Part shown: one piece after another, positions 3,843 to 47,221 of the stretch
Position numbering within the stretch: the stretch's first letter is position 1
Layout: every line of letters starts with the position of its first letter
IMG/VR virus record: IMGVR_UViG_3300008448_000052
Reading direction: 5' to 3' (one strand)
Length of the DNA: 64,000 nt
DNA from: a virus
Position numbers and translations under genes: made by a program
The notes under the pieces: model-generated
The model's input: the letters and a program-made list of their open reading frames with translations, nothing else
What the model was told of the DNA's origin: nothing
Databases searched by the model: none

Positions 3843-3868
3843 TAAAACACAAAAGCAAGGAAAATAAA
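3840..3868 (-). promoter_or_regulatory. sigma70-like promoter TTGCTT-17-TATACT driving the antisense island
   Basis: Read on the minus strand: TTGCTT (3863-3868), 17-nt spacer, TATACT (3840-3845), then 8 nt to the ATG. Confidence 0.45.
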
Positions 3869-3875
3869 TAAAAAT

Positions 3876-4849: not shown

Positions 4850-4865
4850 CATTTAGGATACATAC

Positions 4866-7661: not shown

Positions 7662-8081
7662 ATGAAACACCTAGAAAAAATGTTAACAAAAGCTCCAAAA
7701 GGAGACATGTCAAAAGATGAAATTCAAGCTAAACTTGACGTGTTAGTAGAAATGATGGATATGCTTGAAGACGAAACTGGTAGCAGTGTTAAGTCTGGTA
7801 TGGACGAAATGATGAAGCCTAAAGAGTCAAAAGAAAGCTCTAGCGTTGAAGAAAAAGATTCAATGCCTATTAAGGGTGGCAACAATGTTGGTCCTCTTGT
7901 AAAAGCTAATGCGGCTGAACCAGAAGTTGCAGACAGCGACAATGGCGGCGAAGGTATGAAAGAAGCTGTTTCAGAAAATGAAGCTGATGAATACTGTGGT
8001 CTTGACGATCAAGCTGACCATGACAGCATTTTCTCACAGAAAAAAACAAAAAAGAAAAAGTTTAGCTTCTTAGAAGACTAA
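7662..8081 (+). CDS. acidic virion-associated or assembly protein (putative)
   Basis: 139 aa, strongly acidic with a basic KKTKKKK tail. Confidence 0.45.
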   Translation: MKHLEKMLTKAPKGDMSKDEIQAKLDVLVEMMDMLEDETGSSVKSGMDEMMKPKESKESSSVEEKDSMPIKGGNNVGPLVKANAAEPEVADSDNGGEGMKEAVSENEADEYCGLDDQADHDSIFSQKKTKKKKFSFLED

Positions 8082-8103
8082 GGCTCTTTCTAGAAAGAAC
8101 CCT

Positions 8104-9054
8104 ATGTCTAACTATTACTTTACGTCAACGCAATTATTGGCGTCTATTAAACGTAGATGCCTCATTCCTGCTTCACAATCTACATTTAGTGACCAAGATT
8201 TTCTAGACTTTGCAACAGAAGAAATGAACATGGGCGTTGTCCCAACCGTAATTCAACTACATGAAGACTACTATCTTTATGAAACGCTTATTCCACTAGT
8301 AAATGGTCAAATTAAATATCAAATACCCTATCGTGCCATTGGTAATAAAACTAGAGACATTGCTTTAGTTGATAGTAATGGTGGTTATAGCGTAATGACT
8401 CGCATTGGTATTGGTGAAATTGCTACATGGAATTTCTCAAATAGCATTTATGCCTATTACATAGCTAGTAATGAAATATGTCTAGTGCCGTCTGATACAA
8501 ATACCACATTTAATGGCGGGTTTCTATCAGTGTCTTATTACCTTCGTCCAAATTCTCTAGTGCCAGATACAGAAGTTGCATCTATTACATCTATTGATAG
8601 AATAACTGGCATTATATCAGTTTCTTCATTGCCTGATACTTTTTCAACTAATACACTATTAGACTTTATTCAATTTAAGTCTCCACATAAAATTTTAAGT
8701 TTTGACGTTGCTCCTTTGTCAACCGACGCCATTGGTTCTACTATTACTTTTGATTTATCTAACATTCCAAGTTCTTTGTCAGTTGGTGATAAAATTTCAT
8801 TAGCTACTCAAACGTGCATTCCTCAAATACCTTCGGATATGCATGTCATGCTTGCTGCCAGAGTTGCTTCAAGACTACTTGAGGCTATTGGTGATACAGA
8901 AGGTTTACAAAATGCTAACCAAAAATTAGCAGAATTAGAAAACAAAACTGCAACTCTCATTAATAACCGTGTTGAAGATTCTCCTCGTCGCATTGTCAGT
9001 GCATACGGAACCCTTCGTAGTGGACTAAATCGTAGAGGTAGAGGTCGATGGTAA
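8104..9054 (+). CDS. virion structural protein (putative)
   Basis: 316-aa ORF within the structural gene run. Confidence 0.5.
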   Translation: MSNYYFTSTQLLASIKRRCLIPASQSTFSDQDFLDFATEEMNMGVVPTVIQLHEDYYLYETLIPLVNGQIKYQIPYRAIGNKTRDIALVDSNGGYSVMTRIGIGEIATWNFSNSIYAYYIASNEICLVPSDTNTTFNGGFLSVSYYLRPNSLVPDTEVASITSIDRITGIISVSSLPDTFSTNTLLDFIQFKSPHKILSFDVAPLSTDAIGSTITFDLSNIPSSLSVGDKISLATQTCIPQIPSDMHVMLAARVASRLLEAIGDTEGLQNANQKLAELENKTATLINNRVEDSPRRIVSAYGTLRSGLNRRGRGRW

Positions 9055-9063
9055 GGACGTAAC

Positions 9064-12000: not shown

Positions 12001-12513
12001 TACACTAACTACTTACCTTCTTCTGGCTATCAAGATTTAGAGCAAAGTATATCAAATTTAAATAGCTTAACTACTAACATCGTAACACCTTACACTCAAA
12101 GCTTTCTATTTGGTAAAGCAAACATATATAAAGCCATTGAAAGCTATGTAGTTTACAATCCGCAATTTTTTGGTGACCCATCTGTTGAAAAACAAGTAAG
12201 TCAAAGCACTTTTATGTTTGAAGATACCAATTTTACATTAATGACAGCTTCGTTTAAAAGCGATAAATCTCCAGCATTAGGTTCTGTACCATTTGTTAAA
12301 AGTGGTAACGGTGATTTTGGTAGCTTTGCATGGGGTTCGGTAAATTGGGGTGGTGTAGGGGCTCCTGTACCATTAAGAACCCTTGTCCCGCTGGATAAAC
12401 AAAGATGTCGATTTTTAAGTGTTAAGCTATTACATAAAGTAGCTTTAGAAAACTATGCCCTATTGGGTATAACCTTAACATTCCGTCCTTACGGTAGTAG
12501 GTCGTATAAATAA
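9064..12513 (+). CDS. large virion structural protein (tail/baseplate-like), TTG start
   Basis: 1149-aa ORF; first in-frame start after the stop is TTG at 9064 with AAGGA SD upstream; beta-rich composition. Confidence 0.55.
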   Translation: MAQNVVLKASGIHSNNNYFSASPNGSFEEAVNVVIDRSEIVEPRRGFAVYGNTDTANTKQIISYKDAVIKHYSNKLKYDSNNAGDFIDFTGDLVNETDTGLRIKSVEMNGNLYLTSSTGIKKISATSSADFATTSIQPSGAAKAVDLNAVTNFASFGFLEPNSKVAYRLVFGKKDVNENLLLGVPSARVLVWNITNYLTGQSCVVNLNFSLPNAVDNTYFYQLYRTGLSKEPSVNEPADPGDEMYLVVEDVVTAADVTNGFINVTDSTPDDFRSNGALLYTNPVSGEGIAQANDAPPFAKDIATYKNFLFYANTKTVQRLNLAFLTATGITSGASNFKILDGTTTETYTFQGTFETQTINYNAVASHNDFHNSVSGTAKYFTLVSASDTRKYCVWFYKTAFDLEPSLSGYINIKVTATGSTVDSNMVDALAAITAATDDFNLTLNTTTNILTAEASNNGDVSITLLNTITNMVSSRDNLGTGQDIATKKIFLPRTTGLNAPSVSVALEQIAKSLVDVVNGNSVIVNGYYSSDFDSIPGQMYFEQQSVTGVAFYLNSNVGTVFNPTVPATGNTIISSNEVRPNRLYFSKNQQPESVPLVNYVDIGPKDREIKRILGLQDSLFILKEDGIYRLSGDDASNFLVTPFDFSAQVLAPDTAVILNNQIYALSTQGVIVITDTGVSVISRPIENQILKIIREGSNYKTASFGVSYESDRSYLLFTTTILTDTVATQVFRYNTFTNNWTKWDISKTCGLVNFRDDKLYLGASDINVIEQERKTLTRIDHADRDFEVQIQLNGVSSTGIRLNSLSNVKVGDTLVQRQYLTLQQFNRVLKKLDTDPTVDDTDYFSTLELNKGENARTNLEALAVKLNADLSTSIYTTLTNDYVRTITNISVAAQTVVTIGAHNISQGRYINISGSNSTPSIDGEWEVLAATATTITINKRVTVVGTAGTVQTDINDSKDQQICFNLIVNQLNIDTGVFYTNYLPSSGYQDLEQSISNLNSLTTNIVTPYTQSFLFGKANIYKAIESYVVYNPQFFGDPSVEKQVSQSTFMFEDTNFTLMTASFKSDKSPALGSVPFVKSGNGDFGSFAWGSVNWGGVGAPVPLRTLVPLDKQRCRFLSVKLLHKVALENYALLGITLTFRPYGSRSYK

Positions 12514-13006: not shown

Positions 13007-14854
13007 ATGGTATCAGAAGACTTAAGTTTAAATAAAGACGAAGACAACAACGATGAAAACATGCAACTTTCTACAACATCAGCAGTTAGTCCTGTTAGTT
13101 CTAGAGTAGCACCAACATCTACTGGGCTTCCTGCTCAACAAGGGTCTGGGCGTTTTACCAATTTACAAAAATACATTAATGCTAACGAAGGTGCTGGTCA
13201 AAAAATTGCTAGTAAACTATCTAATGCAACAAGTTCAGATTTAAGTACTTTTGATAAGGATTATAATGCTAAAACACAAGAAATTGGTAAAGGCATTGAT
13301 GAGGCTAAAAACCTATTTAACACTCAAGGACAAGGCTTTAAATCGCAATTAGGTGCCTATCAACAAGGGTTGAATTCTTATAAAAACTTTACTGATAGAG
13401 GATTGTTTGACCAAACTGGACAAGACGTTCAAAACTTTACAAACTCGCCTCAATTTGGTCAATTTCAATCTTTACAAAGTGGCCTAGGTCTAAATGAAGA
13501 CCAACTTAAGCAATCTCAAGGATTGGCTGAAACTATGGCTAAAAACACTTTAGATAAAATTGATAAAAAGTATAGTGACATTCAAAGTGAAAAGGGTCGT
13601 TATGATTTATTGCAACAATCAACACCTTCTTTTGGACAAAGGTCTACTTCTGGTGGCAATAGATTAAATCAAATGTTTTTTCAAAAAGACCCTAATGCGG
13701 TTAATAATTTGCAGAATTCTTTTAAACAACAAGCTGCTGATGTTGCGGCTAAGAATGCCATATTGGGTACTCAGGGTGCTTCATTAAATGACATTATAAA
13801 TCAAGAAAAAACCCTTATGGGTGATTTAAATACAAATTCAAAAGCTTTACAAGAGTCTTTTTATAATAAGTTAAATTCAGAAGATGCTTTTAAACAAGTC
13901 AATGACGCTAGAAAAGGTTTATACGACGACTATATTCAACAACTTCAATCTGGTAAATATTCACAAGATTTAGCAAATTTATTAGGTGTAAGCAATTTAC
14001 AAACTTATAACCCAATGGGTAACACTCAGTCAATAAGCGATGCTGGGCCAGTTGATGCAAAATTTGCCAATGCTGGTAAAATTTCACAAATGGCAACTAA
14101 TCCTTTACAAGGACAATTTAGTACGTATAATATTAATAAGGAAAATTTACCAAATTACATATCAAAATCTGGACAAGAAGCTAAAACTTTTCAAGATGTA
14201 CTTACTCAGCCTGATTATGACTCTTACTCTGCTTTACAAAAATTGTTTGCAAATCAAGATTTTGCTAACAAAGCAAGGGGCATATCAACACTAGACCCTG
14301 CTGTTACTAAAAGTTCTTTAGCCGATTTAACTACTGATGTTAAAGCTAAGGATGATGCTTTTGTAAGAGACTACGCTAATAGGAATTATTTAAGTCAAGG
14401 TTTAGGTCAAGAAGTATATTCTCAACCAACTACATTTGGTGGAATGATTCCTACTGGCGGTACTGTTTCTATAGGCCCTAATGCTTTAGAAAATTTAGGT
14501 ATCACTGAAAACAATAGTCCATTAGCCGCAATTCAAGATTTAAGAAATAGATATTCAACGTGGAGTGGCGCTAATAGTCCATACCGAGCAGTGAGTTCAA
14601 GTTATGCTAATTTAGATGACTACATTAGAAATAGTGACAATGCCATTAAAAATCAAAACGAGTTAATGTTAAGTAGTGGTAATAGGGGCGATGAAGCAAA
14701 AGCCTTACAAAGAGCATATGAAGCATCTTATAATCCGTTAAGAGACAAATTAGAAAACATCGTAAACACTACTGGTGTTAAAAATCGTGTTGAAATTGAC
14801 CCTACTGAAAACACTGTAGAAAACAGATTTAAAAAATTTAAAGGACTATTATAA
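13007..14854 (+). CDS. Q/N-rich low-complexity virion protein (internal/ejection protein candidate)
   Basis: 615 aa; very high Gln/Asn/Ser content; directly behind promoter motif copy 3. Confidence 0.5.
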   Translation: MVSEDLSLNKDEDNNDENMQLSTTSAVSPVSSRVAPTSTGLPAQQGSGRFTNLQKYINANEGAGQKIASKLSNATSSDLSTFDKDYNAKTQEIGKGIDEAKNLFNTQGQGFKSQLGAYQQGLNSYKNFTDRGLFDQTGQDVQNFTNSPQFGQFQSLQSGLGLNEDQLKQSQGLAETMAKNTLDKIDKKYSDIQSEKGRYDLLQQSTPSFGQRSTSGGNRLNQMFFQKDPNAVNNLQNSFKQQAADVAAKNAILGTQGASLNDIINQEKTLMGDLNTNSKALQESFYNKLNSEDAFKQVNDARKGLYDDYIQQLQSGKYSQDLANLLGVSNLQTYNPMGNTQSISDAGPVDAKFANAGKISQMATNPLQGQFSTYNINKENLPNYISKSGQEAKTFQDVLTQPDYDSYSALQKLFANQDFANKARGISTLDPAVTKSSLADLTTDVKAKDDAFVRDYANRNYLSQGLGQEVYSQPTTFGGMIPTGGTVSIGPNALENLGITENNSPLAAIQDLRNRYSTWSGANSPYRAVSSSYANLDDYIRNSDNAIKNQNELMLSSGNRGDEAKALQRAYEASYNPLRDKLENIVNTTGVKNRVEIDPTENTVENRFKKFKGLL

Positions 14855-15866: not shown

Positions 15867-17267
15867 ATGGATAAACGTTTTTCACTAGTACCAGAAGACC
15901 AAGAAGAACTAGATTTATACGAAGCCGATAACGCTCCTGCTTTAGAAGACAAAGAATATTTACGTCAACAACAAGTTGCTTATACTGACACAGGAGTACC
16001 AGTTGGTCCAGAGGGTGGTTTTAGAGCTGGTCAAGCAAAACAACCAGTAGTTGGTAAAGCTGCGGCTGATAAGTATTTTGCATCAAATGATGCCAACACT
16101 CCAACATTGGAACCCGTAGATACTAAAGTAGCTGACACCAATGATAAAGAAACTAATGCTCAACGTTATCAAAGAATGTTAAGTGAATTAGAAGATTTAA
16201 GAAGTCAACCTAAACCCGATTTAACAATGTTACGTGGTGGCAATCAAATTGCCCAAGCCATTGCTTCTGGTTATGGTGGTAAACTAGGTGACAACAATGA
16301 TGTTGTGACCATTATGGAAAATAAAGATGATGATAGAGTTAAAAATTTATTATCAGAATTAAAGCTAATGAAGGATACAACTGGAGCAATAAGACCTAGT
16401 CAACAAAGTAATATTTTTGGTAAATTACCAGATGGTAAAATGGTTCCTCTTATTTTTGACCCAAATATTCAGAAATATGTAAATCCTTTAAATGGTGAAC
16501 CCGCTGGTCCTAATATGGAAATTATGCGTAATTCATTGTATACTGATGCTTTTGGAAATAAGGTATCTTTTGGTACTGATGGTGTTCAAACTCAAAAATC
16601 ATCAGCTCGTCCAGAAGCTTCACAAACTGTTGATAATATCTACGCACAAACTCAAACATTTAATCCTGATAAAGAACAAGTTAAAGCTTTAGATCAAGAG
16701 ACAAAACGTTTAGATTCGGCTACTAAAGATATTAACGCTAAAATTGATGCGACAAACAGACTAAGATCAACATTAGCTAGTAATAGCAAACTTACAGGCG
16801 CTATGGTTAAGACTCAATTTCCACGTTTAGCTGGTGAGGTTGGTAACTTAAATCAAGCCGAACAAGATGTATGGAATGGTTCATCTGCTTGGTTAGATAG
16901 AATTGACCAATTTTTAACTACTGCTTCTGATTCTCAGCTTACTCCTGAAAATAAGGTTGAATTGAATAAACTCATTGATATTTTCAATGATACATCAGGT
17001 AAAGCTTTAAATCAAATTATGGATTCTTCTGCAAATCGTTTAAATATGGTCCATAAAATTCCAAAAGATTTTGTTAAGCAATCATATGGTTCAATGCGTA
17101 AAATTCCACAACAAACCGCTGGTGGAACAAATGCGGAAGTTCAAAAAGCAAATGCTGCTACATTAATTAAAAAATTCGATGATGCATTAAAACAAAATCT
17201 TACACCAGAAGTACGTGCTGCTTATGAGAAAAAGAAACAAGAATTAAAAGATAAGTTTGGATTATAA
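15867..17267 (+). CDS. virion protein (putative)
   Basis: 466 aa; GGAGAA SD; coupled to its neighbours. Confidence 0.5.
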   Translation: MDKRFSLVPEDQEELDLYEADNAPALEDKEYLRQQQVAYTDTGVPVGPEGGFRAGQAKQPVVGKAAADKYFASNDANTPTLEPVDTKVADTNDKETNAQRYQRMLSELEDLRSQPKPDLTMLRGGNQIAQAIASGYGGKLGDNNDVVTIMENKDDDRVKNLLSELKLMKDTTGAIRPSQQSNIFGKLPDGKMVPLIFDPNIQKYVNPLNGEPAGPNMEIMRNSLYTDAFGNKVSFGTDGVQTQKSSARPEASQTVDNIYAQTQTFNPDKEQVKALDQETKRLDSATKDINAKIDATNRLRSTLASNSKLTGAMVKTQFPRLAGEVGNLNQAEQDVWNGSSAWLDRIDQFLTTASDSQLTPENKVELNKLIDIFNDTSGKALNQIMDSSANRLNMVHKIPKDFVKQSYGSMRKIPQQTAGGTNAEVQKANAATLIKKFDDALKQNLTPEVRAAYEKKKQELKDKFGL

Positions 17268-20163
17268 GATGAACGATGATTTACTAAAAGAAGCTGATGG
17301 TCTATTAAGTAAAAATGATGACGATTTATTAAATGAAGCTGACAGCTTAATGACTAACCCACAATCACCTAAAGAACCTATTTCTCGTAAAGAGTCTTTT
17401 ATGAAAGGTGCAGAGCAAGGTGCTACATTGGGATTTGCTGATGAAGGCAAAGGTGTCATGTCAGGACTTATGGACGATGCTATGCGCATTGCCAATTTAT
17501 TAGGACTTAGTGATACTAAATCTCCTAGACAAATGGATGAAGACCTTGCTGCCCAAGGATTTAAAATTCAAGGGTATAATCCAAATAAAACCGTTTATGA
17601 AGAAGCTCGTAATGTAGCTCGTGGTGAATATAAAGATGCTGAAAATGCATATCAATCTAAAATACCTTTTACAGACATAAGTGTAAATCCGTATAATTTT
17701 GCTGGTAATTTGGCTGGTGGTATGGTAACTATGCCGTTTATGCCAGCGAAAATGGTTGCCCCAATGGGTGCTGTTGGTGAAATGGCTCCTTTACTTACTA
17801 CACAGTTTGCAAAGCAAGCTGCCAAATCTGCGATAAATAGCATTCCAACTTCTGCTGTTGCTAGTATGGGTATATCCGAAGGTGAAACTCCTGTGGATGT
17901 GCTTAAAGACACCGCTGTGGGTACTGGCATGGGTATGGTGCTATCACCTACTTTGGAAAAGGGTTTACCCGCTGTTGCTAATGTTGCATCTAAAACTGGT
18001 GATAAATTTGTTGACTTATTGAACATGTTCCCCGGTGAACCAGCTAACCGATTTAAACTTGGTATGCGAGGAATTCTTGGTGTTAGTAAAAGCACTGGTG
18101 AAAAAATTCAAGGCATCTTAGATAAGCAAATTAGTAAATTTAGAAACAAAGTTGATGAAGCAGATTTAGCTCGTATAAATCAAGAAAACGTTACTTTACA
18201 AAACATTGAAGCATCTATTAGTGCAAATGAAAATAAAGTAAAAGAATTATCCAATGAATATAATGACCTATTGGCACAGCAAAGTGCTTATAAAAGAGAC
18301 GCTTTATACACTAAAAAAGACGAAAAATCTACATTATTTGAACAAGCTAAAACAAAACTTAAAGAACAAATTGATGCATTAGAATCTGAAAAAGATCAAC
18401 TATTAGCTAATTATGAAAAAGAAACTTTTGATAGCATTAAGAAATATGAAAATGACTTGTCTAAGGTTAAGTCTCAAGAAGAAATTCTTAAAGGTGAAAA
18501 AACTAAACTAAAAGACTTTGAACCAAAGCGTATAGGCGACAAAGCTCAACAAGCTTTTGAAGCAGACAAAGCTCAAATTAAAGCTAATTACGACATGTTA
18601 GATGAGGATTTGGCAACTCGTAATGTTAAATTTAATGTGTCTCAAGATTTAAAAGACTTTGAAACAACCATTAGTGGATTGGCTCGTGGAGATAAAGAAT
18701 TAACTGCACTTAATAAAAATATTCTGTCTACTTTAAAAAAGTATAAAGGTCAAATAGATCGTAAAACCCTCATTGACTTAGTAAATGGCTTTAAAGATAA
18801 ATATGGTAAGCAGCAAGGTTCTGCGCTTAAAATGATTCGTTCTAAAATTAAAGACCCTACCATTAATCGTCTATATGGTACAGCTTTTGACGGATTAGAA
18901 GACAGTGTTAGAAAAACACAAGATTTTCAATTGCGTGAATTTGGTCATGAAGATTTAGCTAATCAATATGCTCAAAACAATAAAGCATACCGAGCCATTA
19001 AAGATTTAGAAAATACTTACGGCGGGGATGAATATTCTGCCAATATAGTTTCACAAATTCAGGACTTGGGTAAGTTTGGTAATGCATCAGTTAATAAGGG
19101 TGCCAAAGGTATAGTTTCTGACATTGAAAAAAATACTCAGAATTTACCGTCTTTTACTCGTATATTACCAGAGGAAATTAGTCCATACATTAAAAAATCT
19201 ACAGAAGAACTTCCTAGTCAAATGGTACAAAATGCCAATCAAATGACGAACATTGAAAATATTTTATCTAACCTAAAAGTAAATCAGAAGAAACCTAATC
19301 AATTTTCTCAAAATCCTAAAGATGTTGAATTGTTAAATAAAATTACCGAATTAGAAAACTTAGTAGGCTCTAACAAAAAGAATTTACAAACTGAACAATT
19401 TGGTGAAGATTTTACTAAAAATGTAAATGCTTTAGATAGGCAAATTGATGATTTAAATACTGGCATTGACCCAACCTATAATAAGTTTACAGAACAAGCC
19501 AAACAAAATCAAAATGCTCGTAATATGTTGTTACAACAAAATGAGAATAGTACCCTATCTAAACGTGAACTGTTAGCACCAAAACCTAAAACTACTCAGC
19601 TAGATAAAATGCTAGCTAAGGACCCAATTGATAGAGACGCTGAATTGCGTAAAATGATTTTAGCGGCAGACAAAGAACGCACTCTTGGTGGTTTGGGTTC
19701 TGCTAGTGAAAAATTAGATAATTTAGCAACAGAATTAGATATACCCATTTCTGAAATGACTCCAGAAATTAAAGAACTTCAAGATTTACTTTCTGCTTAT
19801 AAAGACAATATTAACTTTGCCTTTAATAAGGCGGGCGGTGTTGCAACTGGTGGTGAAACGCTTGGTGCCATTGCTAATGCTGCGGGTTATGTTGCGGGCA
19901 TACCTAATAGAATGGTTAATAAAGCTTTAACACCAGTTATGAATGCTACTAACAAAGGTTTAAACTATGTTGGTAAACAAAATATAATTCCTACTAAAAT
20001 GGGACTACAGTCTATTGATGATGTTTTAGCTAAAATTAGTAATAAGCCATTACAGGACGTAATGAAAATGGACTCTACAGGAAAAGCTGCATTAAAAAAT
20101 ACATTGTTACAAATTAGTCCAGAAGTAAGAAAATATTTAGAAGATAAAGAGAATAAGAAATAA
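17257..20163 (+). CDS. large coiled-coil virion protein (tape-measure / internal core candidate)
   Basis: 968 aa; extensive heptad-like K/E/Q/L-rich stretches. Confidence 0.5.
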   Translation: MDYKMNDDLLKEADGLLSKNDDDLLNEADSLMTNPQSPKEPISRKESFMKGAEQGATLGFADEGKGVMSGLMDDAMRIANLLGLSDTKSPRQMDEDLAAQGFKIQGYNPNKTVYEEARNVARGEYKDAENAYQSKIPFTDISVNPYNFAGNLAGGMVTMPFMPAKMVAPMGAVGEMAPLLTTQFAKQAAKSAINSIPTSAVASMGISEGETPVDVLKDTAVGTGMGMVLSPTLEKGLPAVANVASKTGDKFVDLLNMFPGEPANRFKLGMRGILGVSKSTGEKIQGILDKQISKFRNKVDEADLARINQENVTLQNIEASISANENKVKELSNEYNDLLAQQSAYKRDALYTKKDEKSTLFEQAKTKLKEQIDALESEKDQLLANYEKETFDSIKKYENDLSKVKSQEEILKGEKTKLKDFEPKRIGDKAQQAFEADKAQIKANYDMLDEDLATRNVKFNVSQDLKDFETTISGLARGDKELTALNKNILSTLKKYKGQIDRKTLIDLVNGFKDKYGKQQGSALKMIRSKIKDPTINRLYGTAFDGLEDSVRKTQDFQLREFGHEDLANQYAQNNKAYRAIKDLENTYGGDEYSANIVSQIQDLGKFGNASVNKGAKGIVSDIEKNTQNLPSFTRILPEEISPYIKKSTEELPSQMVQNANQMTNIENILSNLKVNQKKPNQFSQNPKDVELLNKITELENLVGSNKKNLQTEQFGEDFTKNVNALDRQIDDLNTGIDPTYNKFTEQAKQNQNARNMLLQQNENSTLSKRELLAPKPKTTQLDKMLAKDPIDRDAELRKMILAADKERTLGGLGSASEKLDNLATELDIPISEMTPEIKELQDLLSAYKDNINFAFNKAGGVATGGETLGAIANAAGYVAGIPNRMVNKALTPVMNATNKGLNYVGKQNIIPTKMGLQSIDDVLAKISNKPLQDVMKMDSTGKAALKNTLLQISPEVRKYLEDKENKK

Positions 20164-24042: not shown

Positions 24043-25283
24043 TTCTGGATTAGTTTATCTAAAGAAGCATCTTTGTCGGTGCGACCATCTACTTTAATGA
24101 AACGAATGTCACCTACTGGATAGTCTTCTACTGACTCAAATAAATATTGTCCAGAAGCAGTTTCAGTAAGTCCAATGCTAGTCGCAAATTCATCAGTAGG
24201 TGGTAATGCACCATTTGTAATGAGTACAGCACCATTTGATAGGTGAGTGCATGACCCGACGTGGACATGTCCTATAACAAATACTGAATATTCTTCTTTA
24301 TCAATGAGAGACGAGTTAATGCTATTAATTTGATCTTCTAATGAGCCTGTCTTAATGGACGAACTAGGGTGACCAACTTTTAAAACGCTATCCCCATGTG
24401 TTGCGAAGATACGTTTACCAAATACTTCATAAGTTACATATGGAGTTTTGGGAATGATAAATTCAAGGTTTTTTAAATGAGATAGGCTATATTTTAAAGC
24501 GGTATATAACATAGTACCCAAAGAGTCCCATTTTTGATTTACAGCTCTACTCGGATGACGTGATATAGTTCTATCATGATTACCAGTATTACAATAGACA
24601 GTAACAGAAGGGAACGATGCTGATAAATGTGCAAATGCTTGAGTTAATAAATGTAAGGCTCTAGCAAACTGTTCAGCTTGAGGGGCAGCATCACGAGGGT
24701 CGTGTAATTGATTTTGAATGATGTCACCAATTAATAAAACATTAAGGTGAGTTTCATTTCTATACGCAGACTTATATGTAATAGTTTCTTCAATGATTTT
24801 AGCAAGGCGTCTAGCTTCTTCAACACGTTTAAAGTCTAAGTTGCCAGTTTCATCTTTACTAATGTCTGAGCCGATATGTAAATCTGATAGAACCAAATTT
24901 AATGCTCGCTTAACTTTAGCTTTAGTTTTAATTTTGTAAGGTTCAATTTTTACTTTTGGTAAACCTAAAATGGCATTCTGAATTTCTTCTTCTAGAATGA
25001 TGCGAGTTCCAACCATGTTTTCAAGTTTATTGATGTAACTGCGGTCATCTTTCAAATTACGAATAGCTGGTAATTCTTTATTGGTTATAGTAAAGTGTGC
25101 CGATTTAACTAAAGCTAAACCTCCAACTTTTCTAAGGTCCCAATCGTTAATGCCATAGTCATTTTGAAGCAAGTCTAGCTTGGTTACTTCTGACGGCTCT
25201 TTACCTAATTCTTTAGCGGCAGCTTTAATAGCCGCTACAATGCGTTTTACCAAAGTGACGTTGGTCTCTTTTTTCTCAGACAT
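24027..25283 (-). CDS. calcineurin-like metallophosphoesterase with extra N-terminal domain
   Basis: SDLHIG (DxH), LLIGDII, GNHDR, IGHVHVG motifs. Confidence 0.65.
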   Translation of the reverse strand: MSEKKETNVTLVKRIVAAIKAAAKELGKEPSEVTKLDLLQNDYGINDWDLRKVGGLALVKSAHFTITNKELPAIRNLKDDRSYINKLENMVGTRIILEEEIQNAILGLPKVKIEPYKIKTKAKVKRALNLVLSDLHIGSDISKDETGNLDFKRVEEARRLAKIIEETITYKSAYRNETHLNVLLIGDIIQNQLHDPRDAAPQAEQFARALHLLTQAFAHLSASFPSVTVYCNTGNHDRTISRHPSRAVNQKWDSLGTMLYTALKYSLSHLKNLEFIIPKTPYVTYEVFGKRIFATHGDSVLKVGHPSSSIKTGSLEDQINSINSSLIDKEEYSVFVIGHVHVGSCTHLSNGAVLITNGALPPTDEFATSIGLTETASGQYLFESVEDYPVGDIRFIKVDGRTDKDASLDKLIQKWEKL

Positions 25284-25346
25284 TAAGGGTCTCCCTATTC
25301 ATATTTGTTTGTTTTGTCTTATGTTAATAGTTTAGCTAACTTGACA

Positions 25347-26213
25347 CTACTTGTCAAGCAATTCTTTATAATTTTTAGATAAAGCATAGTTTTTAAATTG
25401 ATTTATGTCTAAAACTGTACTAAAAATTCCCATTGTATCGTATAATCGTTTTAAGAGTTGTTGGACATCATGGTTTGGACTGTTTTTGTTCCATTTTTTA
25501 CTTTGTTCTAATCCATATGAATATTCAGCTTTAATCTTAATTTTCTGAGTATGTTCTTTTTTAGTTTTCTTTGCCTTGTTTGGCTTAATTTTAATGATTG
25601 ACAAGTTTTTTGTTGGATAGAGGTAAATTTTATCACCTTGTTGAATGAGTTCCTCGTTCTTAATAGCATCCCAAACTGCAACCTCATTTGTTCTAATATC
25701 AACTTCTTTACCCTTTATGTAATAAACTTTCTTAGGCATTAGCATTTCTTTACTATTTGGTCTAAGTTCTGTTTTAAGAACATATCCTTTACAAGCTAGC
25801 ACTGGTTCGGTAATTGTTTTTTTAGCACACCATCTAGAAATGTCTTGAATGTTTACAGCTTCTTTTACATATTTTTCATAAATGTCAACAACAGTATTCT
25901 GCTTATCTTCTAATATGGCATCAATGATTTCTTTCATAAGAGAAGCTAAAGCTGGTTCTTTGGTAGATGATTTAAACGCTGAACCCTTAATTTTAATTTT
26001 ATTAGTACCATGCTCTTTTAAAATATAGTTTTTAGCTCGAACAACAATTACTGTATCAAAATATCCATCATGGTCAAACTGTATTTTTTCAGGAAATTGA
26101 TTGTTAAGTTCTTCTAAAAAAGCATCCTGTTCTTCTTCTGTCCAAAATTCACCATTTGGTTTTTGAACTAAAATTGCATCTGTATCAACATTAACTAATT
26201 TTAAATTATGCAT
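25347..26213 (-). CDS. family B DNA polymerase, C-terminal fragment (motif C + thumb)
   Basis: Begins MHNLKLVNVDTDAILV (DTD motif C) and contains a KxY-like VRAKNYIL; sits directly behind the HEG that follows the N-terminal fragment. Confidence 0.6.
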   Translation of the reverse strand: MHNLKLVNVDTDAILVQKPNGEFWTEEEQDAFLEELNNQFPEKIQFDHDGYFDTVIVVRAKNYILKEHGTNKIKIKGSAFKSSTKEPALASLMKEIIDAILEDKQNTVVDIYEKYVKEAVNIQDISRWCAKKTITEPVLACKGYVLKTELRPNSKEMLMPKKVYYIKGKEVDIRTNEVAVWDAIKNEELIQQGDKIYLYPTKNLSIIKIKPNKAKKTKKEHTQKIKIKAEYSYGLEQSKKWNKNSPNHDVQQLLKRLYDTMGIFSTVLDINQFKNYALSKNYKELLDK

Positions 26214-26877
26214 AATAAAAAACTATCCCATTTTTTGTTTTTTTAGTTCTACCTTTTAAAATATCACAAACAGAACTAACTGAAATTTTCCAATATTTAG
26301 CAGCATCAACTAAACTTTTAAAATTATTATTCATATTGTCTTTCAGTGGTTTTTTACTTTTTTCTATAAATGGTAGTAAATCTAAATGTCGCTTTAGTCT
26401 TTTTGAAATTTTAGACATTTTACTTTTAGTTTCATCAGTATGTTTAAATTTTTTATTTAATTTCAATTGTATCATTTTAATTTTAAATTCTTTTGTCCAT
26501 TTCTTACCATACATATAATGATCAGAACCTTTAATTATTTTTCTTTTTTTAAACTTATCCATTGTTTGTTTACTATGCTTTCGGCCATCCATTGGAGCAG
26601 ACGAGTGTAGACTAATATTATATTTAGGTTGTAAGTTGTTTAAATATAATTGTTCTATTTTTAATTTATTCTTTAGTAAACATTCTTCTATAACCTCAAA
26701 TTTAAAATTATCTTTACCATATTTTTTAAAAGCAATATTAAGTTTATAATTAGGATGTATTCCTTGTTCAGCTTTTCTAAAGTGTTCTTGTTTTCTTTTA
26801 GTCCAATTATTTGTTGAACCTATGTAAAAATCTTTAGTTATTATATTAATAATTTTATATATGTAACTCATTTTCAT
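26206..26877 (-). CDS. GIY-YIG homing endonuclease
   Basis: YIYKIINIITKDFYIGSTNNWTKRKQEH... GIY-YIG core plus basic NUMOD-like C-terminal DNA-binding region. Confidence 0.8.
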   Translation of the reverse strand: MKMSYIYKIINIITKDFYIGSTNNWTKRKQEHFRKAEQGIHPNYKLNIAFKKYGKDNFKFEVIEECLLKNKLKIEQLYLNNLQPKYNISLHSSAPMDGRKHSKQTMDKFKKRKIIKGSDHYMYGKKWTKEFKIKMIQLKLNKKFKHTDETKSKMSKISKRLKRHLDLLPFIEKSKKPLKDNMNNNFKSLVDAAKYWKISVSSVCDILKGRTKKTKNGIVFYYA

Positions 26878-28435
26878 GAGTGCTTAGTCCTTTCCAATAT
26901 TCTACGGTTTTACCAGTTGCAAACATAATTGCATCAGTTAGTACTTTTCTACCCATTCTGGTTACAAAAGCTGCTCCTTGAACAAAATTAAAGTTTAATC
27001 CTGCTGCCCCCATAAATCCATACAAAGAGTTTGCTGCGACTTTTTGAGATTGCTCTAAATCTTTGTAATATTGTTGTCCTGTTTCTTTTGCTAGTTTCTT
27101 ATTTTTTAATCTTTCAGTTGCAAAATATTCTGTAATTTTTAAAAAGTTACCGTGAGGGTCTTTTTCTTTAGAATAGACTTTATAGTGTCTCATTAATGAA
27201 GGATATAGAGAAGAAACGTCACACTTTAAAGCATTTTTATAAATGCCAGCAATACCAAAAGAAATTGCCCCCTCGAATGATTGAACTTCATCTGCTTTTG
27301 GAATACTAAACCCTATTTGCAAATAACTTCTAACCATTATATTATTAATTTGACTACCCGTTGCACTAATGCCCATTGTTTGGAAAGACTTGCTCACCGA
27401 CTGGGTAAAATAGAATTTAGAAGGAATCATTATATCAAATAGTTTTAAACCATCGTCAGAGTCATCATTGGCATATTCTTTGGCTTTATTCCACATTTCA
27501 GGTTTTCCATCTAAATAATCTAAATAATATTGCCACATATGTTTAGCATCAACAAATGTTCTATTTTCTTTTTCTAATCCTAAATGTCTAATAATTGGTT
27601 TTAACCCATAACTAGGAAAACTTCTACCAATGTCATATTGATATGATAGAAACATTGTATCAATAATTTCTCTACCAAAAATGTGACAATTAAAATATTC
27701 AATGTCTTGAGAGCCGTCTTTTCTAAAAGAGCTTTCCCATCTATCAAACCTAATAGCTGAATCATCACGACCTAAATCAAGCTGAATACCTAACTCTCTA
27801 GCTCTAAATGCTAAATATGGTATGTCAAATGATAGTATGTTATGTCCAAGCATTATACTTGGGTCAACAATTTTAACCCATTTAATCCAAGCCTTTATCA
27901 TGGCTGCTTCATTGCCTTTGTAAGTGATGAGGTCAAATATTTTCTTAATGATGCGACCATCAGGTCTACGGTAAGTGTTGGTTATCATTACCACTTTAGA
28001 AAGTTCGGTATGCTTTAGTGTAGTTGTTTCTATGTCAAACGATAAGGCAGACACTTCTTTTGGTACCATGCCCTTAAAGTATGTCATGCCATTATAAACT
28101 AATGTTGCTTCTTTCTGGTCAAAAATACGATAGTAGTCTACATTGTTCTTTTTTAATAGACCAACGACTTTGTCTCGTTCTTCTTGATTATTGAAGGTGC
28201 CCAAATATTTATAGTGTTGAACGCCTTCTAGTGTAGTTTGTTTATCTGAGATTTGTTTATTGGTAATGAACCAAAATGTAGAAGGCTTTTTAGTTAGTTC
28301 TAGCTGACCATTTTTAAGTTGACGATAAATGTATAATTCATTATCTTTGTTTTCAATAGAAACTATACGATCAGTATTATCTTTACCAAATACTAATTTT
28401 TCAGTTTCTTCTGGTGTTGCAAGTAAAGTATTCAT
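26855..28435 (-). CDS. family B DNA polymerase, N-terminal fragment (N-domain, 3'-5' exo, motifs A and B)
   Basis: FDIETT (Exo I), HNILSFDIPYL (Exo II), DVSSLYPS (motif A), KVAANSLYGFMG (motif B); stops before motif C. Confidence 0.8.
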   Translation of the reverse strand: MNTLLATPEETEKLVFGKDNTDRIVSIENKDNELYIYRQLKNGQLELTKKPSTFWFITNKQISDKQTTLEGVQHYKYLGTFNNQEERDKVVGLLKKNNVDYYRIFDQKEATLVYNGMTYFKGMVPKEVSALSFDIETTTLKHTELSKVVMITNTYRRPDGRIIKKIFDLITYKGNEAAMIKAWIKWVKIVDPSIMLGHNILSFDIPYLAFRARELGIQLDLGRDDSAIRFDRWESSFRKDGSQDIEYFNCHIFGREIIDTMFLSYQYDIGRSFPSYGLKPIIRHLGLEKENRTFVDAKHMWQYYLDYLDGKPEMWNKAKEYANDDSDDGLKLFDIMIPSKFYFTQSVSKSFQTMGISATGSQINNIMVRSYLQIGFSIPKADEVQSFEGAISFGIAGIYKNALKCDVSSLYPSLMRHYKVYSKEKDPHGNFLKITEYFATERLKNKKLAKETGQQYYKDLEQSQKVAANSLYGFMGAAGLNFNFVQGAAFVTRMGRKVLTDAIMFATGKTVEYWKGLSTHENELHI

Positions 28436-28436
28436 A

Positions 28437-29204
28437 TTATCTTTTTGGATAGGGTTTTATTAAGTGTTTAATATTAGTATACAACACATGTTTCCTTTTG
28501 CCAACAAAATAAAAGTATCTATGTTTACTTTTCTGTTTAACAAATTTAGCATTAGGGTATCTCTTTAGAATTTCATCTTTACGTTGAGAGCCAATTTTAG
28601 ACCTCATGGCTCTAGACCCGTACAATTTGCCATCTATGATGACACCAAATCGTTCCTTGTTTTTATTTTTAGGATTGCTGTCTCTCATTGAACCAACATA
28701 ATGAAAATTACAGGCTTGGTAAATGGTTCCCACTTCTCCAGCTAAGTGGTCGGTAGTGCAAGTTATCACCTCATATTGAGGCGGTAGCAGCTTTATTGCA
28801 CCCATTATAAGCTTACTGTTAGTGTTCTTAGGTGTCCAATGAAGACATACTCCTCTGGATAATAGCAGCATCTTACCAGTGTAACCATACTTATCCCAAA
28901 CGCCTAAATTCTCAGAATATTCAGGACCAAACACTACAACTCCACCACATAGTTCACCAAAGAAAATACCAAAGGCATATTTATTAACCGCTGGCATACA
29001 ACCAAGCCATTCATATTTCTCTATGATGGTTTTGGCTAATGACATGGTAATGGGTTTAACTATGGCATTCTTTAAAGTTAAGTCAGCATTTGTCCAGTAT
29101 GGGTTTTCCAATTCTTCTTTAGCGGTACGAACTCTTATGTCATACTGCCAAGCTGTACCGATGCTATCCTTATCTAAAGATTCTTCATACCTAGTTTTTG
29201 ACAT
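28437..29204 (-). CDS. hypothetical protein
   Basis: 255-aa ORF coupled between polB and the primase-helicase. Confidence 0.45.
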   Translation of the reverse strand: MSKTRYEESLDKDSIGTAWQYDIRVRTAKEELENPYWTNADLTLKNAIVKPITMSLAKTIIEKYEWLGCMPAVNKYAFGIFFGELCGGVVVFGPEYSENLGVWDKYGYTGKMLLLSRGVCLHWTPKNTNSKLIMGAIKLLPPQYEVITCTTDHLAGEVGTIYQACNFHYVGSMRDSNPKNKNKERFGVIIDGKLYGSRAMRSKIGSQRKDEILKRYPNAKFVKQKSKHRYFYFVGKRKHVLYTNIKHLIKPYPKR

Positions 29205-37901: not shown

Positions 37902-38710
37902 TATTTCTTATCTCCTGTGTTTTGTATCATTGAACCATGATAGTTGTAAACTTCGTCTAAACCGTTAATGTGTAAATGTTCTATACCCTTAGAATAAATA
38001 CCATGAGTTGTGTATAATGCAACCTTATTAGCTCCAGACTCTTTTAATAGTTTTGCAGCCGCAATGAATGTTGCGCCGCCATCACATAAATCGTCTACTA
38101 TAAGAATAGTTTTACCAGTTAAATCAATGGGAAACTTGTGTTTATATTTTAAACCTTCAATGGCACCAGTTTCTTGATTACGTTTCTTTTCTAGAATGAT
38201 AGGGGCTCCATAGTATTCTTCATCATATTGATAGCCACGAGCCGCCGCACCAGCATCAGGAAAACATACATAGTCAGTATTCGATTGTTTTAACACTTGT
38301 TGAATTCTAGGTGAAGGATTTATGTTAATAATGCTAGGCATTATAATGTCTTTAACAGCTTTTATATTGTGCATGTCCACTGTTGTAATGCTTTCAAATA
38401 CTTGACCCATAAGTCTTAAAAAAGGATATAGCGCAAACGTAGACGTGTTTGTTGTAGTTTTGTCTTGACGCGCATAGGGTAGTGTATCACAAAATAAATT
38501 TGCTTTTTTATTAGTTAAAGTAAGTAATAGGTGACCCAATTGATATAGGTGAAAAATTTCCGCTTCATTTTCAAATTTGTATTGAATTCTTACTTCATCT
38601 TTTTGTTTAGGCGCAGGGTTTAAATGCCATGCTTGTGAAGTGCCATCAGGAAATTTAGTAATTTCAAATTCAATAAGTTGTCCAGTCGTCTCGTTAGTAA
38701 TGATAATCAT
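37901..38710 (-). CDS. ribose-phosphate pyrophosphokinase (Prs)-like / Adps-like phosphoribosyltransferase-fold protein
   Basis: ILIVDDLCDGGATFIAAAKLL PRPP-binding loop of type I PRTases; 269 aa with an N-terminal Prs-like half. Confidence 0.6.
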   Translation of the reverse strand: MIIITNETTGQLIEFEITKFPDGTSQAWHLNPAPKQKDEVRIQYKFENEAEIFHLYQLGHLLLTLTNKKANLFCDTLPYARQDKTTTNTSTFALYPFLRLMGQVFESITTVDMHNIKAVKDIIMPSIININPSPRIQQVLKQSNTDYVCFPDAGAAARGYQYDEEYYGAPIILEKKRNQETGAIEGLKYKHKFPIDLTGKTILIVDDLCDGGATFIAAAKLLKESGANKVALYTTHGIYSKGIEHLHINGLDEVYNYHGSMIQNTGDKK

Positions 38711-41266: not shown

Positions 41267-41519
41267 TGTTTCCCCCGATGCGTTCTGTTAAAGTTGTTTT
41301 ACCACTTTTATAAGTGCTTATAGTTTCTGAACAATTAGTAAAGTAGTGATAACGATAGTCACTAAATCTATATACTTTACATCCATCTTTTTGAAAAAGA
41401 AGAACTACGTCAAAATTGTCGGCTGGATTAGCAGTTTGCACTGACACCGCCTGTCCAGATTTAGAACAAGTAAATCCTGTCAACATAAGCGATGCTGTTA
41501 CTAATAGTATTAATTTCAT
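41253..41519 (-). CDS. small secreted protein (signal peptide)
   Basis: 88 aa; N-terminal MKLILLVTASLMLTGFTC signal-like sequence. Confidence 0.4.
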   Translation of the reverse strand: MKLILLVTASLMLTGFTCSKSGQAVSVQTANPADNFDVVLLFQKDGCKVYRFSDYRYHYFTNCSETISTYKSGKTTLTERIGGNNVRK

Positions 41520-43879
41520 AATTCATTTCCTTTTGGTCTAATTAATTTTACTACAAAACCCGTTAATTTGTCAAACTCTTTTTTGTGTATTAAAAACAAA
41601 GATGGACCATATTCGCTGTATTCGTCTAAAAACTGTTGCTTAAATATTCCTAACCCTTTAGGTATGTTTTCTGGGTGGATTTGTTCAGCATACTCTGCCG
41701 CTTTTTTATACCATCCGTAAGCATTTGCCGTAGCACTAGATGCTTTATGAATAAGTTCTTTTTCTATTGCTTCAACTTCTGGTAATATTTCTTCTGGGAT
41801 AAGGGCTTTATATTCAGAAGGTAGGACAAACTTTCCATTAGGTAGTTCTGCCATTTTTTCCCAAATAGAAATGGGACTGATGCTGTTTAGAATTTTCTGC
41901 ATTTTACAATAGGCAGCACCTTTGTCCTTAATGCGAAATCCAGAAGGAACATAACGACGAACTACACCTTCAAAGTTTACAGGCCACGTTTGTTGTAACT
42001 CTTTAATTTCTTCCGCTGTATAGTTATAGGTTTTACGAAGCGGGAAACCAAGAATGTCGGCAAATTCTTTTAATAGGTCTTCATCTAAGTCTTTACCAGT
42101 AACCTTATTTATGGCACATAATAGGACAAGAGTTTTATCATTACCATAGTCAACAACAAGTCTAGCACCATCATTAAATCTGTTTTCTGGATATATAATC
42201 TCAAAACAAGGTGTATAACGCTTTAACGTGCCCAGCATTGTATTATATTTCTCAGAGCCAGCCTCAACCTTAGCTAGGGCTTCTTGTAGCATGGTTGTGC
42301 CAATTTTAGCTTGGTCAGATTGAAAAGAACCACGAGTAGCTATTTTGTATTTATCGTCAACTGGGTCTAAATATAAAATACCCAAAGAACCATCTAGCTT
42401 TTCCTCTACTACAAAAGTTTCACCTACTGGTGGTTGTGGTAGGGTTTTGTTTTCAAGCTCGAACTCATTAAAAAATTTGGACAAGGGTCTAGCAACAGTG
42501 TCGCCCGTTTCCTTATTTAGAATGAGTCCACGACATTCAATGGTATACTTATTCCAATAGCGTTCATATGTACATTTTTCGCTATAGTTAAAAAGTACCA
42601 ATGGTCCACTTTCTTGTTTACGAAGATAGCCTTGCTCTACTAATTTGTCGTATGTTTCAAATTTATTCATATGGTCCCATTCATCGTCTTTAGGTTTTTT
42701 TGGAACATTGCTATCTATTTCGGTTACAATGGCTATTTCTTTTTTAGGACCGTGGATTGTTGCTATTCGGTTTTTTTCACCAAAACAAGTTCCACCATCA
42801 AGTCCATAAATTGTTTGTTCTTTATCATTAACAATAATGGCATTTTTAATGTCTTCAATAACTATGTGTCCAAAAAATAATTTATACTGCGGAAATTTAC
42901 GTTTCTTGTGAAACCAATAGCCAGCCGAAGCTTCTCTAGTAAAAGTTCCCATTTTGTCATCAAAATAACGAGCATACAAACAAAATTCTCTAGTGGTGTT
43001 TTCTGGATGTACGTTTGGATTAAACCCAGCATGGGTGAAATAGTTATCGTGTATTTTTATAATGTAAGGAAAATCCATCATTTTACAATATAGTTCATGC
43101 TTTTTTTCACCCTCTAACATGTCAGATTTAGTTAGTTGGTCAATGGTGCCTTGAATGCTGTCAGTATGAACCTTATTGCCTCTTAGCCAACGTTTGAGCT
43201 TGTGTCCATGATTTGAGTCAGTGACATAAACATTGGGTGTATGTAATACAAACTCAAAAACCTTGTCACATTGTTCGCCTCTATCGTTTAAGTCCCCAAG
43301 AATGAGAAGCATATCGTTTCCAGCAACATATGAAACTAATTCTAAAGTACGAACCATTTCATCATAGCAAGAGTGAGGGTCGGCTAGCACTATGACTCTT
43401 TTAAAGTCATTAGAATAATTAGTTAAGTCAAGAACCTTTAGTCCTGACTTATGTTCTTGCATCGGTATCCAAATGTCACATTCGTTTTTAATACCTTCAA
43501 ATTCTTCTTTATCAAAGTACATGTTTAATGCTTTATATGCGGTCTCAGCATCGCCAGCTTCTATTGTTGGGTGGTTTCTGCGCTTCATTATTCTATCAAA
43601 AGCCACTGCATACGGAACATGGAAATATCTATATTCAATGACATACCCAGCGGCTTTAGCGGGTTCAACATATCGCATACGTTGTTCTTTAGTAAAACCA
43701 ATGCGGTCAACAATGATGTCGTGTTTTTGTTTTAATAAACTATTAAACTCTCGTAAATGACCTTCTTTTCCTTGTCTATCTTGGTTGACAATAAAATAGT
43801 TCTCAGCTTGAGTAGCTGCCCAAGTGCTTTTACCTGAACCTTGGCTTCCTATTGTTAGTATTAATTTAGGTTTAGTCAT
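41516..43879 (-). CDS. tripartite polynucleotide kinase-phosphatase-ligase (Pnkp-like RNA repair enzyme)
   Basis: N-terminal P-loop GSQGSGKST (5'-kinase); central calcineurin-type phosphoesterase ADPH / GDLNDRG / SNHGH; C-terminal nucleotidyltransferase motif I EEKLDGSLG (ligase-like). Confidence 0.65.
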   Translation of the reverse strand: MTKPKLILTIGSQGSGKSTWAATQAENYFIVNQDRQGKEGHLREFNSLLKQKHDIIVDRIGFTKEQRMRYVEPAKAAGYVIEYRYFHVPYAVAFDRIMKRRNHPTIEAGDAETAYKALNMYFDKEEFEGIKNECDIWIPMQEHKSGLKVLDLTNYSNDFKRVIVLADPHSCYDEMVRTLELVSYVAGNDMLLILGDLNDRGEQCDKVFEFVLHTPNVYVTDSNHGHKLKRWLRGNKVHTDSIQGTIDQLTKSDMLEGEKKHELYCKMMDFPYIIKIHDNYFTHAGFNPNVHPENTTREFCLYARYFDDKMGTFTREASAGYWFHKKRKFPQYKLFFGHIVIEDIKNAIIVNDKEQTIYGLDGGTCFGEKNRIATIHGPKKEIAIVTEIDSNVPKKPKDDEWDHMNKFETYDKLVEQGYLRKQESGPLVLFNYSEKCTYERYWNKYTIECRGLILNKETGDTVARPLSKFFNEFELENKTLPQPPVGETFVVEEKLDGSLGILYLDPVDDKYKIATRGSFQSDQAKIGTTMLQEALAKVEAGSEKYNTMLGTLKRYTPCFEIIYPENRFNDGARLVVDYGNDKTLVLLCAINKVTGKDLDEDLLKEFADILGFPLRKTYNYTAEEIKELQQTWPVNFEGVVRRYVPSGFRIKDKGAAYCKMQKILNSISPISIWEKMAELPNGKFVLPSEYKALIPEEILPEVEAIEKELIHKASSATANAYGWYKKAAEYAEQIHPENIPKGLGIFKQQFLDEYSEYGPSLFLIHKKEFDKLTGFVVKLIRPKGNEL

Positions 43880-47219: not shown

Positions 47220-47221
47220 CC

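Follow-up and report, generated by a model that had tools for sequence, protein, structure and literature searches.

This report addresses a family-B DNA polymerase (PolB) gene that lies in two pieces around a free-standing homing endonuclease gene in the virus record IMGVR_UViG_3300008448_000052. The window, meaning the whole stretch of DNA that was analysed, is 64,000 nucleotides (nt) long. The larger polymerase piece is called polB-N and the smaller one polB-C, and the open reading frames (ORFs) and their junctions are as follows, with lengths in amino acids (aa) or nt:

26855-28435, minus strand: polB-N cistron, ORF of 526 aa
26855-26877, minus strand: overlap of polB-N and the endonuclease gene, 23 nt
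26206-26877, minus strand: GIY-YIG endonuclease gene, ORF of 223 aa
26206-26213, minus strand: endonuclease/polB-C junction ATGCATAA, an 8-nt octamer in which the endonuclease stop overlaps the polB-C start codon
25347-26213, minus strand: polB-C cistron, ORF of 288 aa

The polB-N stop is a TAA at 26855-26857. The endonuclease gene starts with an ATG at 26875-26877, and a second in-frame ATG stands at 26869-26871. The distance from the polB-N stop to the polB-C start is 641 nt. An initial annotation of the sequence had proposed this three-ORF layout, with overlaps of 23 and 8 nt and a spacing of about 640 nt, and it is borne out to the base. Each of the three ORFs is in a different reading frame, and therefore read-through is unable to join the polymerase halves; fusion by read-through or frameshift was ruled out by the three frames and the 641 nt. 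The GC content of the endonuclease gene is 0.21-0.24 (0.22 overall), against 0.30-0.37 in its flanks. Between 25000 and 29400 no terminator-like site was found on the coding strand, and at such AT content promoter-like matches at this locus carry no information. The stop-start overlap of the endonuclease gene and polB-C is probably a translational-coupling junction, and a junction of this kind is kept in most split relatives. PolB-N, the endonuclease gene and polB-C would probably be co-transcribed, with translation coupled through the overlapping stop and start codons.

Anatomy of the polymerase and its endonuclease

The polymerase motifs are divided between the two cistrons in the following manner:

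28022-28039, minus strand: Exo I, FDIETT (polB-N)
27824-27841, minus strand: Exo II, NILSFD (polB-N)
27452-27475, minus strand: Exo III, YANDDSDD (polB-N)
27197-27220, minus strand: motif A, DVSSLYPS, palm part 1 (polB-N)
27008-27043, minus strand: motif B, KVAANSLYGFMG, fingers (polB-N)
26858-26914, minus strand: C-terminal tail, GKTVEYWKGLSTHENELHI, from junction alignments and the model (polB-N)
26172-26189, minus strand: motif C, VDTDAI, palm beta-hairpin (polB-C)
26025-26033, minus strand: KxY (KNY) (polB-C)

The motifs quoted in the initial annotation (FDIETT, NILSFD, DVSSLYPS, KVAANSLYGFMG, VDTDAI and the KxY-like KNY) all stand where it had placed them. Structurally, polB-N comprises the N-terminal domain, the 3'-5' exonuclease, the first part of the palm, the fingers and the last palm helix. 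Pfam finds DNA_pol_B_exo1 (E=6e-16) and model positions 122-201 of 453 of DNA_pol_B, PHROG also places it among PolB, and a profile of its homologues aligns to KOD polymerase residues 52-526. The AlphaFold model of polB-N, with a predicted local distance difference test (pLDDT) score of 90.5, has a palm helix at 485-507, a short helix at 511-518 (EYWKGLST) and a disordered end at 520-526. In this model, made without polB-C, the motif A segment is of low confidence, as expected if the palm sheet is incomplete without its partner. The tail is missing from short-loop contiguous relatives in the junction alignments, and docking is a possible role for it. Among the 120 best homologues of polB-N (51-77% identity), lengths run from 496 to 580 aa, except in one that carries an intein. 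This protein, P0098 (883 aa), holds an intein of ~360 aa with Hint and LAGLIDADG Pfam domains, between the residues equivalent to window 322 and 324, inside Exo III between YA and NDDSDD. It is a third kind of selfish element in this polB gene family.

A Pfam scan of polB-C gave no match. The profile built from its homologues aligns with KOD/9N/Tgo PolB over residues 531-643, DTD and KxY included (E~1e-5). Its AlphaFold model (pLDDT 91.9) has strands 5-9 and 14-17 flanking DTD and starts four residues ahead of the first strand of the motif C hairpin. A Foldseek search of the model against the PDB returned family-B polymerases only, with probability 1.00, and each of the 120 best-matching homologues of polB-C is a protein of its own, 199-321 aa long. 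The profile match and the Foldseek result uphold the identification of the downstream ORF as polymerase palm and thumb.

The break can be located closely. Against KOD polymerase, the polB-N profile runs up to residue 526 and that of polB-C from residue 531, with the KOD DTD at 540-542. Both this alignment and the models place the break where the last palm helix leads into the motif C hairpin, in agreement with the loop between motifs B and C that had been anticipated. In the window it falls 8 residues upstream of DTD. Together the 526 and 288 aa can be aligned over their whole length to contiguous relatives (710-830 aa) and to the 801-aa PolB of Salinibacter phages, and no part is missing. In the relatives' alignments DTD, KxY and motifs A and B do not vary. 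Measured against locus L003, the closest endonuclease-free relative, the ratio of nonsynonymous to synonymous substitution rates (dN/dS) is 0.12 for polB-N and 0.13 for polB-C, and purifying selection acts on each half. None of the other window ORFs examined proved to be a DNA polymerase.

The endonuclease gene carries three segments:

26617-26871, minus strand: GIY-YIG catalytic domain (Pfam GIY-YIG, 1e-8)
26470-26586, minus strand: NUMOD3 (Pfam, 2.5e-7)
26209-26325, minus strand: C-terminal helix-turn-helix-like segment, conserved in homologues

PHROG assigns the protein to phrog_314, homing endonuclease (1e-27), and its residues 4-87 align to the I-TevI catalytic domain 1mk0/1ln0 (E=3e-8). 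Eight homologues of the family keep the catalytic Tyr, Tyr, Arg, His, Glu and Asn, and five of these sit in the gap between the polymerase halves. For the C-terminal segment only the homologue in L009 gives a match, a weak one, which is I-HmuI NUMOD-like. As had been proposed, the gene is intact-looking and free-standing, being an ORF of its own in a frame that differs from those of both polymerase halves. From its conserved residues the window endonuclease is probably active, and its putative target would lie beside motif C. Homologues with 35-43% identity sit in the same gap of L009, L026, L065 and L075. The family is patchy at this site, being absent from L003, L025, L029 and L012, the near relatives of the window and these loci. 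In L070 a 221-aa homologue (4741-5406, 40% identity) directly follows the stop of a contiguous long-loop polB with an ATGA overlap, and therefore this GIY-YIG family also occupies the polB 3' end.

These features are best read as a two-polypeptide enzyme. We consider it likely that the locus encodes a genuine two-subunit PolB, with the GIY-YIG gene as a mobile occupant of the gap and a split that outlasts the occupant's loss. In such a replicative enzyme polB-N would bring the exonuclease, motif A, the fingers with motif B and the last palm helix, while polB-C would bring the motif C beta-hairpin, KxY and the thumb. Because the break lies between the palm helix and motif C, the catalytic carboxylates would be on separate chains, D406 on polB-N and D10 and D12 on polB-C. 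The two polypeptides would need to associate non-covalently to complete the palm sheet. That they assemble into an active enzyme is suggested by purifying selection and by the precedents discussed below.

Relatives and the origin of the split

No match came from a megablast search of GenBank phages with the region or from tblastn of polB-C, and single-protein scans of IMG/VR with polB-N and polB-C returned no relatives, whereas alignment-based scans found them. The phage lineage is an uncultured group with genomes of ~73-90 kilobases (kb), and its nearest cultured relatives are Salinibacter phages, at 28% identity, in which the 801-aa PolB is contiguous. A phmmer search against 1.84 billion representatives (50% identity clusters) gave 339 family members; among the best 150 of these 339 representatives, ~100 are stand-alone C-fragments and 38 are full-length. 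Genomic contexts and two IMG/VR scans yielded ~59 distinct polB loci, with L035 a duplicate of L029.

At the connection before motif C these loci take three states. The gene is contiguous with a short loop of 17 residues in 22 of the ~59 loci, including the Salinibacter outgroup, which has the same loop length, and the frameshifted L028. It is contiguous with a long loop of 40-53 residues in 13. In the remaining 24 it is split, always 8-17 residues before DTD. The long loops start like polB-N tails, with 'WA(T/S)GKxxxYW', and end like polB-C heads, with 'HNFxIVNxDTD'. Alignment thus presents the connection as a hypervariable loop among relatives. A contiguous short-loop polB of 922 aa in L071 (2516-5284) is ~200 aa longer than its relatives.

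The gaps of the 24 split loci are variously filled. A GIY-YIG gene is present in five and an HNH gene in six, the latter of two families (type A in L005, L008, L059 and L060; type B in L019 and L046). Small ORFs of no known family occupy four (L006, L010, L020 and L025), and nine have no separate gene. Of these nine, eight have a stop/start overlap of 4-14 nt and the ninth, L003, has a 32-nt spacer. In nearly all split loci the polB-C start overlaps the stop of the preceding ORF, which in turn overlaps the polB-N end, a chain that would suit translational coupling. The 113-aa gap ORF of L025 was considered as a decayed copy of its sister's endonuclease gene, and no similarity was found. By these comparisons the motif C loop is a family-wide hotspot, used by three endonuclease families and marked by recurrent short, long and split states, which the initial annotation had not noticed.

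A second site of splitting occurs in L027 (5995-9020, on a contig shared with L084). There the polB is contiguous at the motif C loop (53 residues) and is split after KxY, within the thumb: a 631-aa ORF ends at 7890, a different GIY-YIG gene of 261 aa occupies 7862-8647, and a 135-aa thumb fragment follows at 8613-9020. From its arrangement, this looks like direct splitting by insertion.

The most informative relative is L003, which has 77% identity to the window in polB-N and 71% in polB-C, lacks the endonuclease and is still split. Its arrangement recurs as L004 in a second assembly. Read in the endonuclease frame, the 32-nt spacer belongs to a short ORF, MKNSCIYKKGIKFFYA followed by a stop, whose 16 codons correspond to the first 8 and the last 8 of the window endonuclease, which begins MKMSYIYK and ends NGIVFYYA before its stop. 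The ATG of this ORF lies within the same 'CATGAA' of polB-N, and its TAA overlaps the polB-C ATG as in the window. The spacer was placed with anchored alignments; with MAFFT and with free-end global alignment, the insertion's left flank came out in the wrong position. The case for an in-frame internal deletion of the endonuclease gene is strong but not conclusive. If so, the endonuclease, or its ancestor, was present in the common ancestor and was lost in L003 while the split was kept, and the relic ORF would preserve the coupling to polB-C. Since L003 is still split, the split is fixed independently of the presence of the endonuclease. The initial annotation had described the gene as split by this endonuclease, a cause that L003, with its relic spacer, leaves unsupported. 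The comparison with endonuclease-free relatives that it proposed gives a split gene in the closest of them, contiguous polB appearing only at 40-50% identity. By sequence comparison, the split has a long history, is widespread and does not depend on the endonuclease gene now present.

A neighbour-joining tree was built with 100 bootstraps and the loop columns left out. It is star-like at depth, and the following sister groups are supported:

L058 (short) and L015 (split): bootstrap 100
L054 (short) and L044 (split): bootstrap 100
L012 (short) and L065 (split with GIY-YIG): bootstrap 97
L042 (long) and L029 (split): bootstrap 96
L053 (split) and L069 with L032 (long): bootstrap 100
L048 (short) and L041 with L038 (long): bootstrap 100

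Supported sisters differ in state, and therefore the loop state changed repeatedly. The tail and head peptides are alike in L065, L009 and L026, though their polymerases do not group. Between L009, which carries a GIY-YIG gene in the gap, and L025, with its unrelated 113-aa ORF, the synonymous divergence (dS) is 0.53 in polB-N (1028-2551 / 5983-7521) and 0.24 in polB-C (3188-3871 / 7843-8523). This step suggests a recombination boundary at the intercistronic site, and together with the shared peptides it would fit exchange at the junction. Across the family the site has switched repeatedly between short loop, long loop and split gene, and three endonuclease families have settled in it. Given these three families and the repeated state changes, endonuclease invasion beside the motif C sequence is the most likely origin of the split.

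Several points weigh against this reconstruction. Because the tree is star-like at depth, how often the state changed and in which direction is uncertain, and the tree may also be blurred by recombination at the junction. The 5' half of the relic match in L003 is short and AT-rich, and a shuffle test over the whole, AT-rich endonuclease gene did not discriminate, so the relic argument rests on position, frame and the shared start and stop. That an endonuclease made the first split is a hypothesis, and the long-loop forms permit a route in which the loop expanded and a stop and start followed.

That route is a possible, though rather unlikely, account of the origin, and it bears on how the split arose, not on the present function of the enzyme. 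In it the split arose without an endonuclease, through in-frame loop expansion followed by a stop and a new start, and endonucleases colonised the gap later. The 13 long-loop relatives would be its intermediates, sharing the 'GKxxxYW' start and the 'HNFxIVNxDTD' end with split forms, and the nine split loci that lack a gap gene, whether with 4-14 nt overlaps or the L003 spacer, are as it would predict. The same scenario has been weighed for Aeromonas phages 25 and 44RR (PMC2988022), and intercistronic regions are favoured landing sites of free-standing endonuclease genes (PMC2993671). However, three unrelated endonuclease families converge on one gap, the one spacer that can be examined closely, that of L003, looks like an endonuclease relic, and the polB of L027, otherwise contiguous, has a GIY-YIG gene in a second split that is unique to it. 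Additionally, the tail and head peptides follow endonuclease type (L065, L009, L026) and not polymerase phylogeny.

Endonuclease invasion, as the preferred origin, can be extended into a more ambitious proposal, which we put forward tentatively and with more doubt than belief: the motif C loop may be the site of a complete and recurrent endonuclease-driven cycle of fission and fusion in an essential gene. An endonuclease from any of the three families would insert beside the motif C DNA and split polB. The insertion would bring, or co-convert, tail ('GKxxxYW...acidic') and head ('MxxNFxIxN') peptides that aid subunit docking. The endonuclease gene would then decay to a relic mini-ORF that keeps polB-C coupled, or to an overlapping stop and start. 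Some lineages would re-fuse the gene by loss of the stop codon, with long loops of 40-53 residues as the scars.

Single-chain and artefact readings

A single polypeptide could still be made from the locus by cryptic splicing, through a degenerate group I or II intron or a split intein, or by ribosomal bypassing; we hold this to be very improbable. The initial annotation had left the possibility open, endonuclease-bearing group I introns are common in phage polymerase genes, and one lies inside gene 43B of phage 25. Against it, an Rfam scan of window positions 25000-28800 found no intron of group I or group II with the threshold relaxed to E<=10, and a scan of 12 relatives at the gathering threshold gave no intron. 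No Hint or intein Pfam domain was found on polB-N, polB-C or the endonuclease, and tail and head together, at most about 30 residues, are too short for a split intein. Coding sequence fills the whole 641-nt gap and overlaps both polymerase halves. The earlier statement that neither an intron core nor an intein is present holds. In L003 the halves are only 32 nt apart, in different frames and with their own start codons, and in one relative they are ~8 kb apart with polB-C upstream.

In this last relative, the polB-N of L013 (5998-7536) and the polB-C of L047 (254-928) belong to the same contig, IMGVR_UViG_3300020049_005939. On it polB-N lies at ~9031-10569 and polB-C at 254-928, on the same strand. 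Repeated paralogous ORFs are present there (L013 8841-9254 and 12524-12922; L047 13-261), and rearrangement or misassembly is possible.

Least probable of all, to the point of being negligible, is that the polB is a pseudogene made by endonuclease insertion or that the split is a sequencing or assembly artefact: insertions into essential genes are usually harmful and L028 has an apparent frameshift elsewhere in polB, but dN/dS is low in both halves (0.12-0.13), the catalytic residues are invariant, the window ORFs examined hold no other DNA polymerase, identical proteins occur on 2-3 contigs (NCBI, JGI), the L003 arrangement is found in two assemblies, and split relatives number in the hundreds. 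The frameshift in L028 (5526-7666, on the same contig as L068) lies near polB-N-equivalent residue 451 of a short-loop polB; it probably reflects a sequencing error or a pseudogene and has nothing to do with the split at the motif C loop.

Precedents, neighbouring genes and significance

The closest precedent is gene 43 of T4-like phages. In Aeromonas salmonicida phage 25 this gene is reported to consist of two cistrons, 43A and 43B, between which lies a seg endonuclease gene, seg43(25), and in phage 44RR an untranslated spacer (IC-UTS) takes the endonuclease's place (PMC2988022). The phage 25 proteins are described as co-purifying and active (Petrov, Ratnayaka and Karam 2010, as summarised in PMC2988022), and the same source raises the view that the endonuclease may have invaded an already split gene 43 (PMC2988022). 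We read the locus in NC_008208 (phage 25), where the layout 43A, GIY-YIG gene, 43B was confirmed; 43A ends before motif B and 43B begins with it. The window shares with phages 25 and 44RR a two-cistron phage PolB, a free-standing GIY-YIG gene in the gap and a close relative that is split without an endonuclease. The initial annotation had invoked this comparison, which holds for the kind of arrangement but not for its place: the phage 25 break is in the fingers, between motifs A and B, whereas that of the window is between motifs B and C. The phage lineages are also unrelated, and here the split is the majority state, three endonuclease families are involved and long-loop contiguous forms coexist.

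Similarly, nrdA-a/mobE/nrdA-b of Aeromonas phage Aeh1 (Friedrich et al. 2007; Crona et al. 2011) has a free-standing homing endonuclease gene inside an essential gene of nucleotide metabolism. The two NrdA polypeptides are reported to reassemble into an active enzyme, and peptides flanking the insertion are thought to aid assembly (PMC3045599, PMC2988022). That system is a ribonucleotide reductase with an HNH-type mobE, whereas the window has a PolB with a GIY-YIG gene, in which an assembly role of tail and head is putative.

The PolB of Methanothermobacter thermautotrophicus (Kelman, Pietrokovski and Hurwitz 1999) is described as an enzyme of two polypeptides, a large N-terminal one and a small C-terminal one, with activity when combined (PMC7776575, PMC1079782). 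Unlike that of the window, it belongs to a cellular archaeon, and its two genes stand apart in the genome with no endonuclease gene between them. Its small subunit is ~223 aa, a size near that of polB-C. Its split site may coincide with an intein insertion site near motif C. Inteins of the pol-c type sit in motif C, between YGD and TDS, of archaeal and Mimivirus PolB (PMC549080). Like them, the window element is a selfish homing-endonuclease element at the most conserved stretch of polB, here 8-9 codons upstream of the same DTD. Unlike them, as they are in frame and protein-spliced into a single polypeptide, the window has neither a Hint domain nor splicing. The 'split DNA polymerase' of OM43 phages (PMC10580990) and that of jumbo phages (PMC7824862) are other polymerases and were set aside as not comparable.

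Other genes of the window deserve mention. A Mom-like DNA-modification gene (28437-29204, minus strand; Pfam Mom, 1.4e-27) lies between a primase-helicase gene and polB-N; it is absent there in L003 and L006 and present in L005, and is therefore a variable cassette beside the polymerase. A cluster at 35110-38710 (minus strand) holds a nicotinamide phosphoribosyltransferase (35110-36651; phrog_448, 1e-196), a metallophosphoesterase (36672-37244) and a phosphoribosyltransferase like phosphoribosyl pyrophosphate synthetase (37901-38710), and may be a phage module for salvage or reconstitution of nicotinamide adenine dinucleotide (NAD+). At 41516-43879 (minus strand) a 787-aa fusion of kinase (AAA_33), metallophosphatase and T4 Rnl1-type RNA ligase resembles Pnkp-plus-ligase RNA repair, of the kind that counters host tRNA-cleaving defences. 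Within 45732-48007 (minus strand) a ThiF-family (E1-like) protein (47222-48007) adjoins a 495-aa phrog_10440 protein (E=3e-127), a family of unknown function. ARAGORN found no tRNA genes in window positions 1-64000. The large plus-strand ORFs at 4866-7616, 9064-12513, 13007-14854, 15867-17267 and 17257-20163 had no PHROG match at 1e-5, and presumably encode structural or tail proteins of a lineage not yet described.

The arrangement is a further example of the known 'genes in pieces', at a different site. The family would add to the T4-like case another natural example, independent of it and much larger, of a replicative phage PolB made of two polypeptides. Its cut lies at a different place from the T4-like one and puts the motif A and motif C carboxylates on different chains. 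Its stand-alone C-fragments lack a Pfam match and are mostly annotated 'hypothetical', and therefore such phages can look like carriers of a truncated polymerase. The loop marks a spot in PolB that tolerates breakage and insertion, and could guide the engineering of split polymerases. The ~60 relatives form a natural series on the selfish fragmentation of essential genes, their expression in step, their reassembly and its reversibility. Together with the relic ORF, this series makes the endonuclease-driven cycle of fission and fusion testable; if that cycle is real, a mobile element would both break the polymerase and supply the means of its reassembly, as has been proposed for Aeh1 NrdA.

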